This document shows, in pieces, positions 3,053 to 31,038 of a stretch of DNA of 64,000 nucleotides. A program made the position numbers and the translations under genes. Numbering within the stretch: the first letter of the stretch is position 1; every line of letters starts with the position of its first letter. The stretch spans positions 22,568,001 through 22,632,000 of the forward strand of contig OZ024746.1 of assembly GCA_964016885.1 (NCBI GenBank). Direction: 5' to 3'. The DNA is from Eledone cirrhosa (taxonomy: Eukaryota). The notes beneath the pieces were generated by a model. The model was not told the origin of the DNA and did not search any database. It was given only the letters and a program-made list of their open reading frames with translations.

Positions 3053-3159
3053 GAAATAAGCTAAACTGTTATTATAAATACTATGTATGTCTGTGTGTGT
3101 ATATATATATATGTAAATATTATGTATATTTATATGTAAATATTATGCGTATATATATA

Positions 3160-18908: not shown

Positions 18909-19674
18909 ATGTATGTATGTATATATATGTATGTATGTTTATATATGTATGCATGTATATGTATGTATATATAATAATAATAATGAAATTATTGTGTACA
19001 GTGCTCAGGTGCACTACAACTCATCAAAGGTGCATGTATAGTACATAGAATAATGTACAAATGTCAGGAAAATGAACAGTGTATGAGTCATTATATAATA
19101 ATAATAACAATAATGAAATATTGTGTACAGTGCCCAGGTGCACCACAACTCATCAAAAAAGTGCATGTACAGTACATAGGGCAATGCACAAACATCAGTA
19201 AAATGAACAGTGCACGAGTCATGATACACACATGTGTGCATGTGTATGGAAGGGGTACATCAGGTGTAGTTTTGGCATATTTCGGGAAGCATGAGTGTCT
19301 TAAAGGATGCAGTGTCTCGGCAGCTAACAACTGACGCAGGCAGTTTGTTCCATGCTTCAGCAACTCTGAGCGTGAAAAAATGTAGTATGTATATATGTCC
19401 GTTTTTATATATATATATATATTTTTTTTTTCTCGTGCAATGGCCATACTCGATAACGAGGGGGCAGCCATCATGTATATATGTATGTAAAAAGTAAACA
19501 GAAATAACAACACAATTGGTACAGTATATGGAAGGGATATATTAGGTTAACGCTTGCTATAGCAGGAAGAGGGTCTTAACGTTTCGGACGCTAGTCCTTC
19601 ATCAGAAGAAAGAATGAGAAATAAGATAGATTGAAGGGACGGGCTATGTGTGTATATGTATGTGTATATATATG

Positions 19675-19715
<41 letters not shown>

Positions 19716-22700
19716 GTATGTGTGTTAAGTATTTCCGTGGAAAAGGTAAAGGAAAGAAGAGTGCTCTATGTATAGTACAGAGCTATTCAATTATATAATA
19801 AACAACACAATATTCCATTACCCAAGGTTTCACGAAGTTAGACGAATTCTAACAGAAACGTCTGATATCGCTCATCTGATAAAATCTTTATTATCTTTAT
19901 GTAATAAAGATTTTATTAGATGAGTGATATCAGACGTTTCTGTTAGAATCATCTAACTTTGTGAAAGCTTGGGTAATGGAATAATTATATTGTGTTCTTT
20001 ATTATATAATTAAATATATATATTAAATATATATATTAAATATATATATTGGCCTTGCAATCAAAAGGTTGTGAGTTCAATTCTCAGACCGGGTGATGTG
20101 TTGTTTCCTTGAGCAAGACACTTTATTTCACATTGCTCCAGTTTACTCAGCTGTAGAAATGAGATGATAGGGACCGGGGTCCCTATCATTCCACTGCAAA
20201 GTGGTCGTGGAGGTGCCACAGCAAAAAAGCACCCAGCACTCACTGTAAATGAGGTTGATGTTAGGTAGGGTATCCAGCTGTAGAAATCAAGCCAGAATCA
20301 GTTCCCGTCCCACCCTTGCAAGCAGGGAAAAAGCGGACGTAAAATGAAATGATGATGATGATGATAGGAAAAAAGTCAGGACCGCGACGGCTGAGCTCCA
20401 GCCGTTTCGACAGCTATTTCTGAACTATATATATAAATATGTGGTAAGGGTGTTGGACTTATGATTATAATGTAGTGGGTTCAATCTCTGGACTGGGTTG
20501 TGTGCTGTGTTCTTGAGTAAAACACTTCATTTTTCACGTTGTTCCAGTATATTCAACTAAAAACGAGTACCAGTAATAGCTGAGGGTTTATCTTTGTGAT
20601 TGACTGGCATCCTGTCCAGGGGGTAGTCTTGAATGCTCTGTCACCTCATGTTACGAACACGAAGATAAGCACTGGCCTGATGAATCTCAGGGCTTGAGAC
20701 AGACTTCAACTCTTATTAATAACTGCATTATTTCTTTCCAGGGACTATGTTTGAAAATAAACCTCATTTGGTCATTCCATGAGAGTATCTTGGTCAGTCT
20801 ATGAACTTTTCAGCTTTGAGCTTTTCAGTCAACCCTCATATCATCATCATCATCATCATATGTATGTAATAATTTCCTGTGGTCAATAAATAAATTGCTA
20901 AACATTTTTGGTGTATAGCAACATTGTACTATACACCAAAAATTGGATTGTGTAGTGTTATGACCTGATATGATTTTGGCATGAGTGAGTGTGGACCGTG
21001 TAGTGAAATATACAGGCTTAGTAGTGTTTTTAGTGTGGTCAGAGAGAAATGTGTCAAAAGCAAGGTTTATTAGCTTAACAAATTGTAAGTTGAAATTATT
21101 TTATTGGTTAAACTAGGCAAGAGAATAAATTTACTACTAATGATGAAGATGTTTGACTAAAATTGATGATGGTGAAGATGGTAATGATGATGGTGGTTGT
21201 AATGATCGTGATGATAATGTTACTGATGGTGGTGATGTCAATGATCAAGATGATGATGATGGTATGATGGTGATTTTAAACATTGATGTTGAAGCTACAA
21301 AAGAAAAATGGAAGATAAAATATATATAAATTTTTGCACCAATTATAATGATTAAGTTTGCTGAACTTACACAAACAGTTGGTGGTGTTTTAGAGTTTAG
21401 GTAGGATTCCAGAATATGTTGAGCTCTTCTCCTCAATACTTTTTCATTAACTGGTCCCTTGTAACTTTCCTTGAAATAAAAATGGAAACAAAGCAAGATA
21501 AACACATTAGCAACAATTATACAGGTAAATGCAATTGCAACTTGAGATATGACTGACCATTTATGGAGGGGAGGGGATGTTCAGACAAAGTATTCAGTGT
21601 AATTCTATAAATAGGAACTCCTCAAGATATTTCACAGGGTTACTATTTGGGGTGAGAAATATTTAGATAAAGCTATAAATTGGTTAAACATACAGAAAAA
21701 AAGCAGCATTAAAGGACTATAAATGTCATAAATGAGAGGAAAAGGAGGGGGAGAGCAAGGACTAACATGGAATACAGATATAAAATGATGAGGATGATGA
21801 TGGTGATGATTCTTACCTTTAACCTTAGAACATCAATGTAAAAGAGCAGGTCTTTGTCAACATAAGGCAACATATCATCATCAACATGTTTGGTGAGATA
21901 AATATGGAAATAAATTAGTTGAACACTCATCTGACCTATGCAACACTGATGAAGAATTGTTTGGAGTTCTTCCTGTTCTTCTTGGTTTGGTATAACATAA
22001 GGAACAGACTGGAATAACAGAGGTTTAATCATTGAGGAGGGCAATGGGCTGGAACAATAGACATTTTGGTGTTTAGAACATTAGACATTTTGGTGTTTAG
22101 GAAAGCAATGGGCTGGAACATTAGACATTTTGGTGTTTAGAAACGCAATGGGCTGGAACGAAGTCTTCCTGTGAACGTGACCTGGGCATTACGGTCAGCA
22201 GCGATTTGCGTTGGACGAGGCACGTCTCTAAAATTGTCAAGAGGGCCGAGAGTGTCTTAGCATCACTCAGCAAGACCTTTGTCAGCCGCTCTCCAGATAT
22301 CTATTTAAGGCTGTATACAGCTATGGTGCGACCACACTTAGAATTTCCATCACCAGTCTGGAATATATCTTGCTCAGGACATTGACCGCCTGGAAACTGT
22401 TCAGAGACGTGCAACCAAGCGAATACCCTCCATCAGGCATCTACCATACTCTGAGCGCCTTGCTTCCCTGGGCATGGATTCATTGAAGCTCCGACGCCTG
22501 GCAACTGACTTGGTAAACACCCACAAAATTGTTAACATGTTGCCAACAACAACCCTGAGTGCCTTTTCGATTTCCATGTGTCTAACACACGTGGACATGC
22601 CCACAAAGTAAGAAAACAGCACAGTTCCCATGACTTTCGGAAACATTTTTTCACGCTCAGAGTTGCTGAAGCATGGAACAAACTACCTGCATCAGTTGTT

Positions 22701-25700
22701 AGCTGTCGAGACACTGCATCCTTTAAGGCCTCCATGCTTCCCGAGATCCGCCAACACTACAGCTAACACATACAAACATGTACTTCCCTGACATTTGTGT
22801 ATTATTCTATGTACTATATTGACGAGTTGTAGTGCACCTGAGCACTTTACACAATAATTTCATTATTATTATTATTATTTAATAGAAGAAATTTGAACAT
22901 ATGAGCAAAGCTGGTCTTGAGCTGTGTCAACCCCTCCAAATCTTACCATCATGGTCACAGGTTTAAAATGATGATGATGATGATGATGATGATAGTAGAG
23001 GTAGTGGTGGTTATGATGATTTGACTGATACAACATAGATTGCAATATTTTGGCTCAATGGACTGGAAGTGTAGAAATTGTTATAGTTGTGAGAGCTGTA
23101 CTGTGTCAATAGAGATTTTAATGTTGCAATTAATAAATTAATTACACATAGCACAATGTATATATTGGGTCGTCTGAAATGTATAATACAAGTATAACTA
23201 CTACTTTTTAAATTACAAACCTTGCTGTGAATTGTAAACAAATGTAAACACATTTTTATATCCTTCCAGGAGCAGAAAATATGATATTTTCTAGATATTT
23301 TTCTGGACAGAAATATTAGCTCCATTGGTATATGTATTAACATAATCATGATCATCATCAAGGTTTAGTGGTTAGAGAATTGGATTCACAGTGTGAGGTT
23401 GTGAGTTTGATTCCCAGACTGGGTGATACATTATACCCTTGAGCAAGACACTTTATTTCATGTTGTTCTTTTTGCCAGAGTTGCAATTGGTAGATAGTAT
23501 CAGCAAAAGAAATATCAATGAAAACCTTGTTTCCTTGGTCCTATTTGATAAGTTCCACTCCACTTGGAAAGGAAATGTGGCTTGATCAATTCCATTGATC
23601 AAGTGATCTTTTATATCTGCTATCCATGCAGGTCATCACATTCAGAGTCAACAGGTCATCACATTCAGAGAACGAAATATGTTCCATATTTTGGCAAAGT
23701 TTCTATGGATGGATGCTCTTCCTAATTCCAACCACTTTACATTATTGTAATTCTTGTTGAGAGAAATTAGTTCTACTACTATACCTTTACTTTCTTACGT
23801 TGACTGGCAGTCTTTCTTGGTGCTTGAATAGTGTAGCTCTCTCTGTCTTTCTTTGTAAGTAAACCAACAAAATCTATTCTGTTCATATGTGATAATTCCA
23901 TCTCACCAACACCACATTCATCACACCGGGCCTGTTGATAATAGGAAAGAAGAGCATATTCCACTGAGCTATGACAAACAATTTTATTTTATAAAGAAAA
24001 ATGTATATAAGTTAACTAACGTTTATTGTCTGGTCGGGAAAGCAAGGGAGACAACTCCAACTGCTTTTTGAAATGTTTAAACTTGATCAGGTGAAACATT
24101 GTCTTTGTCATTGCTTGTTAGCACTGTTGTAGCTAACTTACTGAAATAGTCTATTTCTAAAGAATAAATGAATAAACAAACAGAAAAGGATATAGAGTAA
24201 TGAAATTAATTTATATTTTAATTATAAAGGGATGATTTGCCTATTTATGTAAATATTTTCTCTAACCCATGCTAGCGTGGAAGATAGACGTTAAACGATG
24301 ATGATGATGATGATGATGATGATGAATTATTGCATTTAGCATGGTTGTGAAGTAAACTCTTTAACTAAACAGTTATGCCTATGACAATATTCCTATATAC
24401 ATATTGAACTTTGTTTTATAGATATAATTCAAATTTCCTTGTTATATTCTAACTGGTCTACTTACCATTAAATAACTATTAAAAGCATCTTCCACTTTTC
24501 CTGCAATATGTTCCTGAAGTTTTGTCAGAATATCTAAGTCCAACGTATTCATGTCTTCCCCATCCATTAGCCGTACCTCACCATCTTCAAAGACACTCCT
24601 GGCATTTATTAATTTGTTTTCACTGAGACAGGCTCTAAACAAGAAAAGTAAATATTCAGTTAAGTTGAACAGAGATTACTAATAAAAAGAACAAATCAAA
24701 ATATTTGTTGTGACTATAAGGTGGTAAGTTGGTAGAAACATTAGAATACCAGATAGAATGCTTTGTGGTACAGGTTCCAGATATTTGAGTCCAAATTTCC
24801 ATGAAGTCAACACTTTGTTTTTCTTCTTTTGGGAGTTGTATATATTTATACATGTGTGTGTGTGTGTGTAAGTGTGTTGTGTGTGTGTCTGTATTTAGTG
24901 ATTCAACAAAATGAGATAGATAAAACGAGACATCATACATGAAAAATTAAATAATGGTTTCAATCTGATCAAATAAATCCATTCAAGGCAGTGGCCCAGC
25001 ATGATCGCAGTCTAAATGAAACCAGAGATTATTGTTTTGAAAGTCAAAGTCCTTACTCTTTTATTCCATTTACCAATTCTAACTTCATATCACTAACTGT
25101 GTATTTGGTGCTGCCAGAGTTAACAAGATTCTTCAATTGTTCAATGTCAGAGTATAATTTAACTACTGACACCATCTGGTAGCCATCTTGTACACCTTTC
25201 ACATATTTCTTGAAGGCTGTCATAATTCTAGAAAGCAAAATAGAAATTATAGAGACACACAAACCTTTAAGATATATATATATATATATATAATCTGAGT
25301 TTTTCAAATATTAATAATAACATTCGATTTGTTTGTAAAATTGCAAACGAATCAAATGTTATTATTAATATTAAAAAAACTCAGATTACATTTATTGTAT
25401 TCACCCATGTAGAGCGAAATTTATATATATATATAAGTATGTACACGTACATACATATATGTATACAGACGTACAGTAGTATGTATATATATACATACAT
25501 GCACACATATATATATATGTACGTATGGATTCACCAAACATTTATTATAATGCTCGGTGTGTTTGTAAACAAACATCCCGTATTAAGCCGTAGTGTCCAG
25601 CAACCATCGCTGCTCATTTGTTCAACACTGACAAAGGAACGCTGTACTAGTTTCAAGCTTATTAGCTATCGTCAGCAACGTATACCTTCCTGCCAGATTG

Positions 25701-26355
25701 TTGAACGTATATACTTACCTTATGCATATTAACGGCTGAGTAGCCCAATTTGCATATCAAGTGGGTTAATCGGCCGGGTGCACCGAAAACGATAAACGGA
25801 AAAAATGAAATGGGATGTTTGTTTACAAACACACCGAGCATTATAATAAATATACATACTACTTTATGTCTTAGTACTAAGAGTGGGAAATGAAATTTCG
25901 TTTCATTTTTTCCGTTTATCGTTTTCGGTGCACCCGGCCGATTAACCCACTCGATATGCAAATTGGGCTACTCAGCCGTTAATATGCATAAGGTAAGTAT
26001 ATACGTTCAACAATCTGGCAGGAGGGTATACGTTGCTGATGATAGCTAATAAGCTTGAAACTAGTACAGCGTTCCTTTGTCAGTGTTGAACAAACGAGCA
26101 ACGATGGTCATTTAGACTTGGCAAGCTATTTAGAACACTGGTTTGACAACTTTACTTCCCTCTGAAGAAGAGATATTATCTCGAAAATTTAGGACATTTA
26201 AATAAATCTAAGGTAAAAGACTAATTGTCAACAATATCTTTTGCATTTGCATTCTTTATTCTATGTCCATACCTGCATTGTTTTGGCTTTATTATACATA
26301 TACAAACGTTTATACCTCATTACACAATGCTTTAAGTGAACTATAACCTCCTCCC

Positions 26356-26386
<31 letters not shown>

Positions 26387-26661
26387 CACTTGCTACAAAG
26401 GGAGTCAGTTCCCTTTCTTGACCGGTGTATCACGTGGTAATTTCTCCCTCTACCTTTTGAGATTTTCTCACTTGCTACGAGTGTGTCTGGAAAGTGTTCT
26501 TTCCCTGAGGAGTTCCTTGAAAAGCTGGTGTGCCTCACAACAATATTGCACATCTATAATGTGCAATTGTTGCAAACTGACCAGCGAAACTGTACAGTCA
26601 AGACTTTGAAGAAAAACATATGTATATATCTGTGTCTATTACTTCTTATTTTATAATTTGT

Positions 26662-26716
<55 letters not shown>

Positions 26717-29700
26717 AGAGCGAGAGAGATGAACTAATTTTTTATCATAAGTAATCATCATCATTATTTTGCATTCACAGTGTATTGGGTGCAATTTAAT
26801 GTGACACCAACAGTAGAGATACAAACAATGGGCTTCTGCACAGTTTCCAACTACCAAATTTCACTCAAGAAGCATTAATCAGCCTGAATCTGTAGTAAAA
26901 GACACTTGTTCAATGTGTCACCCATGGGACTAAACTTGTAATCACATGGATGCCAAGTGAACACCTTAAGCAGAAAATTGAATGGAAGTTGTATGTTGTG
27001 GGATACTATGTTAAGATGAGAACTCTGCCCCCAACAACCATCCCAGGAAAATGGATGATGAAGAAGAAGACAATGACGATATCAATGGCTGTGTTAAAAT
27101 GTTTGTAGAAATAACTTACACTTTGTTGAAGATAAAGTCTTTAAAACTAGGAATATACAGAGGATAGTCATTATCATCACCATTTTCTGTAATCTAAAAC
27201 AGAAATATGTATTATGTAAACAATAACAATGGATCTGATGTACTCTGGATTACAGCATTTAAAAAATATTTTCGTCTGTATTTGTGTAATTGTAACACAA
27301 TGTGTATTTGTCTTGTTTGTCCAGTTTTTATGGAAAACTTAATACAGGGTTGTTTCTAATATATGAATGTGTTAGATATGAGAAATTGCATAATATGTGT
27401 TATTAACCCCTTAGCATTTACACCAGCTGTATCTGGCCAGAACTCTCTCATCTCTTTCTGTTCAAACTGGCTGGAACTGGCCACTCATGCCTACATTAAA
27501 GTATTGTTCTCAAAATAAATAACATCAAAATCTTGTAGATTCGATATAACTCAACTGAGGCACATTAATACCTTTTGGCCTCTGATAAAGCTAGGCGTGA
27601 AAGTCGGATTGCCTTCCAAACACACCCTAGTCTTCCACCTGATATCAGCCCAAAGCTGCATGCTGCAGCTTCCTTAAACCACAACTCGGCAGAACATGAA
27701 AGCTTCAGCCATTGTGATGATGGGCAGATATGGAAGTTTATTAAGGCTGGTGAAACATAGAAAAGAGATACCAGCTGGTCTGAAAACACTGTACCCACAA
27801 CAACTGACAATAAAAAAACTGAAAAAACTCTAGGAAACTAAATCAGAACAACCTGCCATCCCCTGCACATAATCATAGACTGGAATCAAGGTACAAATTT
27901 TTGTCCTTAAATTCACGTAGTCTATACAATAAGATACATCTTTTTGACTCCTACGTCAAAAGTATCGACCCTGACTTCATTACAGTCACGGAAACATGGG
28001 CACATTCCTTACTCTGTGATGGGGTTTTCAGCATAACTAGCTACAACTTGTTTCATAAAGGTCAATGTTCGGTCAAATTAATGTTCGGTCAAATTTTTCA
28101 GCAATTCCTTGTGTTGATTTGAACCAATTGCAGCAAGAAGTATTTTTCTGCAATAAACATATGACCATATCAACACTACTACTTGGAGTCGTTTACCATC
28201 ACCCAAATTACCATCAGCACACTCAACTTTGTGATATCCTCAGAGCTGCTGTCAGAAAAACAGCCACTTATGTTTTTATTGCAGAGGACTTCAATCACCA
28301 AACCATTCATTGGCTGCAAAGTGCAAATGATTTCCTTGAGCTAGTGCTGAACTCGAACTGGTCCCAAGTAGTCACCTCCCCAACAAGAGGTGACAACACT
28401 TTGGATCTACTCTTCACCACTACTCCTGAAACGGTTATTAGTGTTACTACTGAGGAACCTTTAGGTGACTCTGATCATGCTATGATCATTGCCAATCTAT
28501 CCCTCATGAGCAGTAACAAAAACCACAACCATCTCCAAACTGTTCACTTTGACTGGAATAAAGCAGACTGGAACTGTTACTGCACCGAGCTGCAACGTCC
28601 AAACTGGCTTGAGTTTTACGACTCTGGAGATGTGAACACTGTACTTCAGAACATCCTGAACTCAATATGGACAGCATGTGCAGCATCGGTGCCACGTAAG
28701 CAGACAAAACATCCCAAAAGTGCAATTTGGGAGGCTGCAGCAGTCCGTCTTGCCAGGAAAGAACGTTGTAATGCTGAATGTGTGTACAAACTGCATAAAT
28801 CAGATATCAATAGGAAAAAGCTAAATAAATCATCCAACCATCTCAAGCAGATGACAAAAAAGGCAGTGCTTGAATTTGAGCAGTGCATAGCAACCAACTC
28901 TGACAATCAGGTGTTCTGGAAGTATGTTCTCTCAAAGCAGAAGCCTCACTCTTCAGTTGGTCCTCTTCGCAATCCCCACACAAGCCAGGTTACTGATGAC
29001 CCCAAGGAATGCGCAGAACTCATTGCTGAATGCTATGCAGGCATTTTCACTGTTGAAGACCAGAGTGTACCATCTCCACCATCTCTGACATCGGATTCTA
29101 TTACAACTATGGAATTTACACCTGCAATGCTGCGACGTCACCTTAAAAATAAACACAACCATGCCTCTCCTGGTCTTGATGGTGTTACGTACCTGCTTCT
29201 TAAACGTGGTGGGTACCTCCTTCTGCACCAGCTATCACGCTTCTTCCAATTCTGTCTGAACAACGGTGCTACTCCAGAACAGTGGAAAACTGCCAGTATC
29301 ATTCCTCTGTTCAAAAAGGGTGACCGCACATCACCTATGTACTATCGTCCAGTCAGTCTTACTAGCTGCATTGTCAAACTGATGGAATCCTGTGTCAGAG
29401 AAATAAGTTGGAACTTCTGGAACTCTCACAGTCTTATCCGGCTCTCGCAATTTGGATTTATCCCTAACTCCAGCTGCTGTGATCAACTTATAGAGTTTCT
29501 TGAAGACATCACCCGGATCACTGATGGCGGCTCATGGGTGGATGTTGTTTACCTTGACTTTGCTAAAGCTTTCAATTCTGTGCCACACAAAAGACTTATG
29601 GCAAAACTCTCTGCAATGGGTGTGAAGGATGATCTTTTTAACTCATTGAAGTCCTTCATTCTCAGTCGAAGAGAAGTAGTCACGGTTCTATGACAGCATT

Positions 29701-31038
29701 TCTCACTGTATGAGATGTCATCTGGTGTACCACAGGGATCTGTTCTTGGCCCCCTTTTGTTTGTGGCATATATTAATGACATAGATGCCAACTTAAAGAA
29801 TGCCACAGTACTGAAATATGTAGATGACATCAAGCTGTACCTTGAGATAAAAAGGACAGATCCTGAACACTATAGATCTTGCCTGCAATCTGACCTGGAC
29901 ACAATGCAACAATGGATCACAGACTGGCAACTCAAGCTGCTCGAGCTGGCTGTGGACAAGTGTACCACCATGCATTTTGGAAGTAAAAACCCAGCGTCCA
30001 CATACTCCCTCCACAACACTAATATCAAGAAGTCTTCTTGTGAACGTGACCTGGGCATTACTGTCAGCAGCAATTTGCGTTCGACAAAGCACGTCTCTAA
30101 AATTGTCAGCAATACCTTTGTCAGCTGCTCTCCAGATATCTATTTAAAGCTGTATATAGCTATGGTGCCACCACACTTAGAATTTGCATCACCAGTCTGG
30201 AACATTGACCACCTGGAAACTGTTCAGAGACGTGTAACCAAGCGAATACCCTCCATCAGGCATCTACCATACTTTGAACCCCTTGCTTCCCTGGATATGG
30301 ATACATTGAAGCTCCGACGTCTGGCAACTAACTTGGTAAACACCCACAAAATTATTAACCATCTTGCCAATAACAACCCTGAGTACCTTTTTGATTTCCA
30401 TGTGTCTAACACATGTGGGCATGCCAACAAAGTCAGAAAACAGCACAGCTCCCATGACTTTCAGAAACATTTTTTCATGCTCACCGTTGCTGAAGCATGG
30501 AACAAACTCCCTGCGTCAGTTATTAGCTGTCGAGACACTGCATCCTTTAAAACCTCCATGCTTCCTGAGATTCGCCAACACTACACCTAATATTCCTCCT
30601 CCATACACATGCACACATGTATATCATGACTCATACACTATTCACTTCCCTGATATTTGTATATTATTCTATGTACTATACATACACCTTTGATGAGTTG
30701 TAGTGCACCTGAGCACTCTACACAATAATTTCATTATTATTATTATTATTGTTGTTATTACTCTTTGAGTCGTAGTCATTGATGTTAGTTAACTGGAAAG
30801 TTTGTTGAAATGAATATCCAGCCACTACCTGCAGCCTCAGATATTCAGGATGTATCGGAGGGTTCTTGCTGTTCCCAACAAGCATGCCTTTTGAAGCGTT
30901 CCAAAAAGCGTGAAGGGGCCAATTTTCTTTAACCATCCCTGGAAACTTTTTGAGATAGTCCCTAGTGCGCCTATGACAATCGGGATCACTTTGACTTCAT
31001 GGCAGTTCCAAATCCTTTTTACCTCCCACTTTAAGTCC

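Follow-up and report, generated by a model that had tools for sequence, protein, structure and literature searches.

An intron of an RGS22-like gene in Eledone cirrhosa carries an insertion that physically joins a hammerhead retrozyme (F1) to a Penelope-like element (PLE; F2) that still holds intact open reading frames. We modestly favor the view that this insertion arose in one Penelope-driven event with a template switch between F2 and F1 RNA. Retrozymes, PLE tails and inverted copies are already known; the hybrid is what the locus adds. PLEs are candidate movers of animal retrozymes, and F1, a retrozyme, itself displays the two-start-site footprint of PLEs. The locus supplies a named enzyme (F2), a named RNA (F1) and two predicted start sites. 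Positions below refer to the window, the whole 64,000-nt stretch of DNA that we analyzed. The labels F1 to F5 and the monomer (M) coordinates were defined in this analysis.

The host is a minus-strand RGS-domain gene that runs from 53066 to 17086 in a full HMMER search. An earlier sequence-only reading had called it RGS22-like, and a host exon indeed matches an RGS-domain protein whose own best PDB match is RGS22 (E 5.6e-13). A single host exon used as the query in a word-indexed protein search gave no match. The acceptor at 25228 lies 312 nt from 25540, in line with the distance of about 300 nt first given. The exon that follows it, which had been numbered 18, is the 17th matched segment; the first 23 residues are unmatched, which is compatible with that number. 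One contig of run X9 covers only the exon at 25057-25227 and is a weak hint of an RNA run. None of the contigs compared reaches across the insertion, and no empty site turned up.

Three (TA)n-targeting families sit in the intron (Table 1). The F3 family gave 2859 first-look candidates, and a hammerhead lies upstream of the same F3 end in loci L216 and L080. The F3 copy in the window has no ribozyme inside it, and its 55-nt inverted repeat lies 56 nt from the acceptor. The window also holds a near-complete LINE in the next intron (28059-30590, + strand; APE endonuclease and RT, with one stop at 29691), fragments of the 3' end of this LINE at about 19100-19500 and 22100-22770, an inverted pair of hammerhead-like cores at 342 (-) and 441 (+), and further such cores at 19605 (-), 56183 (-), 59246 (+) and 34869 (-). 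A 17-nt direct repeat just right of the target tract (26380-26396 and 26462-26478, 82 nt apart) is unique among the loci compared, as is the stretch 26382-26480.

Table 1. Features of the insertion and its surroundings, in window coordinates
Feature	Position	Strand	Description
Host intron, RGS22-like gene	25228..27119	-	1,892 nt, of which F3, F1 and F2 make up 1,073 nt
F3 remnant, two-armed, short	25284..25422		Belongs to a third and older family that targets (TA)n and bears hammerheads
Left (TA)n target tract	25420..25433		Common to the F3 long end and the F1 short end
Left F1 arm	25428..25810	-	From M259 across the cleavage site as far as the short end, M217-221; holds a and b
Type I hammerhead, left arm (host-sense)	25639..25681	-	Predicted cut between 25645 and 25644
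Inner junction	25811..25873	+	a' = M66-105, then M161-174, then 10-nt filler
Main right F1 arm	25874..26108	+	M232 via the cleavage site to M42; holds b'
Type I hammerhead, right arm (host-antisense)	26030..26072	+	Predicted cut between 26066 and 26067
F1-F2 junction filler, 6 nt	26109..26114	+	Like F2-derived inner-junction fillers of pure F2 insertions L120 and L199
Complete F2 pLTR	26115..26356	+	Holds a minimal hammerhead at 26159-26194, the short end site at 26314 and the ORF start codon at 26327; its long end is at about 26356
Right (TA)n target tract	26357..26381		Flanks the F2 long end

The insertion was originally described as an interlocked double inverted repeat (a-b-a'-b') confined to 25540-26193. 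We recovered both repeat pairs: b (25603-25810) and b' (25901-26108) are 208-nt inverted arms, 98% complementary, with exactly five differences, all transitions and three of them at CpG, and a (25540-25579) and a' (25812-25851) are a second inverted pair of 40 nt at 100%. The CpG richness of the arm (CpG o/e 1.21 in b vs 0.33 in the window) and its donor-type motif, AAGGTAAGT, at 25990-25998 (+) and 25721-25713 (-), were also borne out. The limits were set too narrowly, and the actual span is about 25428-26356. The interlock is not a unit either. Because a and b are neighbors in one F1 monomer, it is a by-product: two pieces of one monomer are seen twice, and the right arm has internal gaps. 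The inner junction is colinear with the right arm, so that M66-105, M161-174 and M232 to M42 follow one another and M106-160 and M175-231 are skipped, leaving gaps of 55 and 57 nt where an AT-rich hairpin lies. The 10-nt filler ends in a fold-back of M236-240, and the words of the inner junction are private to the window locus among 355 loci. The right-arm end at M42 is non-canonical and lacks TA.

We located hammerhead cores at 25675 (-), 26036 (+) and 26162 (+) by script. An Rfam scan returned no hammerhead at E<=10, only low-score matches that fell mostly over the TA-rich part. The hammerheads reported in the two b arms are present (CUGACGA at 25675, CUGAUGA at 26036), but the N7 difference between them is a family-wide polymorphism: 231 cores comprise 115 T, 114 C and 2 other, and we rejected the difference as meaningful. 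The third hammerhead, which had been taken as unrelated, is also present; it is not flanking sequence but belongs to the same inserted stretch, as part of the F2 pLTR.

Judged from its sequence, F1 is an apparently non-coding 424-nt hammerhead monomer that fits the description of a metazoan non-LTR retrozyme, and a and b are neighboring parts of it. Arm b' gave 1,242 first-look candidates in the genome, and the 40 that were scored are 97-100% identical. A 31-letter F1 core pattern has 24,587 exact genome matches (12,671 + 11,916), and its control has 0. The 424-nt monomer could be read whole; in L030 it forms a head-to-tail array with a 424-nt period, at least 7.5 copies and one hammerhead per unit, and no examined F1 copy was continuous with an ORF-bearing body. 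With an arm GC of 42%, F1 is a low-GC head-to-tail repeat within the 150-450 nt that characterize retrozymes. Each unit carries a type I hammerhead with its core and helices I-III, in which 96.4% of cells are paired. Pair 3 of helix I covaries (UG, GU, AU and CG) and is the only pair that changes on both sides, a modest test among related sequences. The monomer RNA is highly self-paired (z -9.75; 0 of 100 shuffles). F1 copies run through the predicted ribozyme cut site in 168 of 170 core contexts (overlapping loci partly deduplicated), and the template is therefore likely to have been a circle or an uncut multimer. A sister retrozyme subfamily (L044-L052 and L037) is about 82% identical to F1 and has the same core in units of 484-502 nt; in its helix I, G-U replaces U-G, and the subfamily has short and long ends of its own; the 502-nt sister has a longer TA tract. 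In L013 and L014, F1 arrays and a repeat that flanks them have been duplicated as one, with a period of about 1,670 nt.

The arms had been explained as a Penelope-type inverted pLTR insertion made by template switching, and a genome search with arm b had been suggested to look for full-length Penelope-like parents. In the loci mapped, none appeared: the dispersed copies are the apparently non-coding monomer, with no RT-EN ORF continuous with the arm. None of the 30 top-ranked GIY-YIG loci and none of the 10 F2 loci compared, a small share of 10,597 candidates, was an autonomous parent with F1 sequence, and the pLTRs of 40 GIY-YIG loci showed no F1 homology apart from two neighboring insertions. 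We rejected an autonomous PLE pLTR as the source of b and b'; at all mapped loci, b lies in an apparently non-coding tandem monomer. What survives of that explanation is that the insertion is young, Penelope-type, inverted and marked by template jumps, but its arms are a 424-nt retrozyme and not pLTR copies. Our confidence is high that F1 is a retrozyme and that machinery of the Penelope type mobilizes it.

The domain content of F2 identifies it as an autonomous EN+ PLE, and the third hammerhead lies in its pLTR. The F2 ORF, which in other loci lies upstream of the repeat seen in the window, combines an RT (PF00078) with a GIY-YIG domain (PF01541) at the C terminus in one frame with a CCHH motif and a Cys linker spaced C-x5-C-x7-C, and open frames of at least 800 aa were found in 9 of the 10 loci fetched for long frames. 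The unit of about 3.13 kb occurs in tandem and shows pLTRs from partial tandems, inverted copies, an optional tail and a hammerhead in the pLTR, with 3,031 such cores in the genome. The window copy is one whole F2 pLTR including the start codon. Its 5' start, at 3149, falls in the family's modal range of 3140-3159 (27 of 122 arms). This 5'-end cluster corresponds to about 26106-26125 of the window, at a hairpin, small and imperfect, that lies 47 nt upstream of the core of the hammerhead; it does not coincide with the predicted cut site and is possibly a transcription start or an RT stop. The window subfamily accounts for 97 exact copies of the 3,031 and has UUU at the cleavage triplet, where most have UUA. 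This variant folds unstably alone (z +1.4) and is probably a weak ribozyme. The main F2 subfamily with intact ORFs (L236-L244) has the core CCGAAGA (U4C) and keeps the UUA triplet. F1 and F2 have no detectable common sequence, and the genome contains many other GIY-YIG families among the 10,597 candidates; F2 therefore need not be the usual partner of F1.

Each family has two fixed end sites, a short one and a long one, at which its copies give way to (TA)n: for F1 these are M217-221 and M277, and for F2 they lie at window 26314 and about 26356. (TA)n adjoins every one of the 46 canonical F1 ends in L001-L205. Where both ends of a two-armed insertion are canonical, one is short and one is long in 24 of 24 F1 cases (L274 counted twice) and in 42 of 45 F2 cases; the other three are short/short, and long/long pairing does not occur among the two-armed insertions of either family. 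These counts leave out non-canonical ends, which affect 16 of 40 F1 and 4 of 49 F2 two-armed insertions, and they come from samples in which best-scoring copies are mixed with the first places on one contig. An earlier pass over L001-L205 gave 11/11 for F1 and 34/38 for F2, and further F2 insertions read by eye in 40 more loci were short plus long in 9 of 9. Tiny inverted long-tail pieces adjoin many apparently single short-ended copies. These sites mark the Penelope "tail", and we infer that F1 is copied in the PLE manner, with both cut strands as primers. Searching the literature by title or abstract, supplements and older PLE papers aside, we found no description of the pairing rule or of retrozyme-PLE chimeras.

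The window insertion is very young and two-armed, and it lies in a (TA)n tract. Here the long/short pairing crosses families, with an F1 short end on the left and an F2 long end on the right. This pairing argues for a single event, as do the modal 5' start of the F2 piece and the absence of TA at the F1-F2 junction, where there is only a 6-nt filler. The right F1 arm and the F2 piece are each one base from the family majority, which points the same way. Two other loci offer parallels. At L138:2263-2390, a 5'-truncated F2 is joined directly to yet another hairpin family that targets (TA)n (F5, whose short end lies about 78 nt from its long end). The build is that of the window, with a short end from F5 and a long end from F2. 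In L167:2482-2580, about 75 nt of a foreign repeat, at a guess SINE-like, lies between an F2 segment and the F2 short end inside a long/short insertion. Against a single event, fillers of the F2 type are seen at the junctions of single arms as well (L121 and L161), and the left F1 arm has four differences from the majority vs one in the right arm. A chimeric query for a second direct F1-F2 join matched only the window among the 40 scored out of 2,096 candidates, and none was seen in the further loci surveyed.

Under the single-event model, a GIY-YIG endonuclease would cut both strands in (TA)n. The first reverse transcription would start at the F1 short site and, on F1 RNA in circular or uncut multimeric form, continue past the cut site as far as M259. 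The second would start at the F2 long site, copy to the usual pLTR 5' end and then jump onto F1 RNA at M42, going nearly once round the monomer and skipping both halves of the AT-rich hairpin. Short templated fillers would then join the two cDNAs.

The strongest competing account, to which we assign a substantial but smaller probability, is nesting: the first arrival in (TA)n was a solo F2 pLTR, and a Penelope-mobilized F1 followed in the left tract, with its right arm resolved at a non-canonical point and the remaining TA lost. Solo F2 copies starting near 3148 are common, and three families are already stacked at this one tract. F1 or another family abuts the F2 5' side through TA in L147, L109, L337 and L326; at least one non-canonical end is present in those 16 of 40 two-armed F1 insertions, and F1 arms end at odd positions without TA in L004, L029, L035 and L040. 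By a rough estimate, nesting together with an odd F1 end would yield the window layout about once per few hundred F2 copies. However, nesting requires that every TA be lost and yet that the loss end within a filler of 6-10 nt, it makes the short/long complementarity of the window and L138 a matter of chance (about 1 in 4), and it leaves aside L167, which shows foreign RNA capture within one event.

Long inverted repeats are prone to deletion. A complete short/long F1 and an F2 could have lain side by side until the inverted repeat provoked deletions that removed M43-M277 of F1, the TA tract and internal hairpin pieces. The right-arm gaps over hairpin-forming sequence fit such a history, but its breakpoint would have to fall at the F2 modal 5' start with an F2-type filler, in an insertion that is very young, and we regard it as improbable. 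Very improbable is an assembly artefact from a fold-back long read: inverted repeats are a known weak point of assemblies (PMC8557442) and none of the contigs compared spans the whole stretch, but the arms differ at five sites, three of them CpG transitions, the outer ends fall on fixed family end sites, and the same architecture recurs in dozens of loci.

We considered what the insertion might do to host RNA. A long pre-mRNA duplex had been anticipated in the RGS22-like gene, and the host-sense strand of 25400-26200 is predicted to fold at -485 kcal/mol (z -38). Only the left hammerhead of the three is host-sense. Its helix I pairing probability is 0.00 in the two-arm RNA vs 0.45-0.94 when the arm stands alone. 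With its palindromic helix III dependent on a dimer partner as well, this hammerhead is unlikely to cleave the pre-mRNA and is predicted to be silenced, buried in the 208-bp duplex. We rejected an A-to-I record in the dispersed copies, which show no A>G excess: retrotransposed F1 copies have 25 A>G vs 19 T>C (75 segments, p 0.37), and retrotransposed F2 copies 25 vs 33 (120 segments, p 0.60). A host-selected regulatory hairpin or ribozyme switch could draw on the 208-bp duplex 375 nt from the acceptor and on the consensus donor motif in host sense. We give this idea next to no credence, as the sequence is 98-99.6% identical to dispersed copies, its unique junctions are private and the sense hammerhead is predicted to lie hidden in the duplex. 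The insertion is probably a passenger that the host gene tolerates.

The single-event model allows a more tentative extension. A dimeric Penelope enzyme might load two separate RNAs, one subunit always using the short site and the other the long site, and might carry a retrozyme circle along with its own mRNA; the window would then be the fossil of a mixed particle, and F2 would spread the 25,000-copy F1. We consider this possible but rather unlikely. If true, it names F2 as the enzyme that spreads a retrozyme to which it has no sequence likeness.

We compared the insertion to known mobile elements. In L1 twin priming, both target strands prime, and a 5' inversion is joined by microhomology; the arms cover non-overlapping parts of one RNA. 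The window arms would share with L1 the priming of both strands but differ in that both are 3'-anchored and overlap. Metazoan non-LTR retrozymes are described as tandem monomers of 150-450 nt (PMC7229834; bioRxiv 10.64898/2026.07.22.740005). F1 resembles them in its 424-nt tandem monomer, GC under 45% and one type I hammerhead per unit (PMC7229834; bioRxiv 10.64898/2026.07.22.740005), as well as in its strongly self-paired RNA and tens of thousands of copies. Its hammerhead has a U-U at the base of helix II like axolotl HHR_Amex2, and a 1-bp helix III with a palindromic tetraloop like HHR_Amex1. According to the same two accounts, PLEs have been proposed as retrozyme mobilizers from co-occurrence and pLTR likeness only (PMC7229834; bioRxiv 10.64898/2026.07.22.740005). 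F1 goes beyond the tandem arrays they describe in its two-armed inverted insertions, fixed short and long ends, (TA)n targeting and direct join to a PLE pLTR. Unlike 21 Xenopus families, F1 lacks homology to the PLE loci compared.

By its motifs, F2 can be likened to the C-terminal EN+ PLEs with a Cys linker and CCHH, of the Neptune/Nematis type, although its linker is C-x5-C-x7-C vs CX2-5CxxC (PMC8557442). The tail is about 50 nt in F2 and 56-60 nt in F1 vs 30-40 in those elements (PMC8557442). The third hammerhead resembles minimal PLE hammerheads in its unpaired base between 9 and 10.1, G10.1-C11.1, palindromic 15.2-16.2 and short helix I; it differs in its UUU triplet (UUA in most of F2) and in a helix I of 3 bp (PMC4209133).

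The closest mechanistic comparison is with Anolis Poseidon PAc, which is reported to cut and extend both strands in vitro from two internal RNA start sites that bound the tail, with starts independent of ribozyme cleavage (PMC11167929). F1 and F2 likewise show a tail bounded by two 3' ends and AT-rich targets, and their copies fit extension of both strands on an uncut RNA template; F2 shares with Poseidon PAc a tail near the ORF start (PMC11167929). The in vitro assays described for Poseidon PAc show no strand difference in start-site use (PMC11167929), whereas the two-armed genomic insertions studied here nearly always combine the two sites; this also holds for an apparently non-coding RNA, F1, and in the window it spans two families. 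The long/short pairing constrains how PLEs finish integration.
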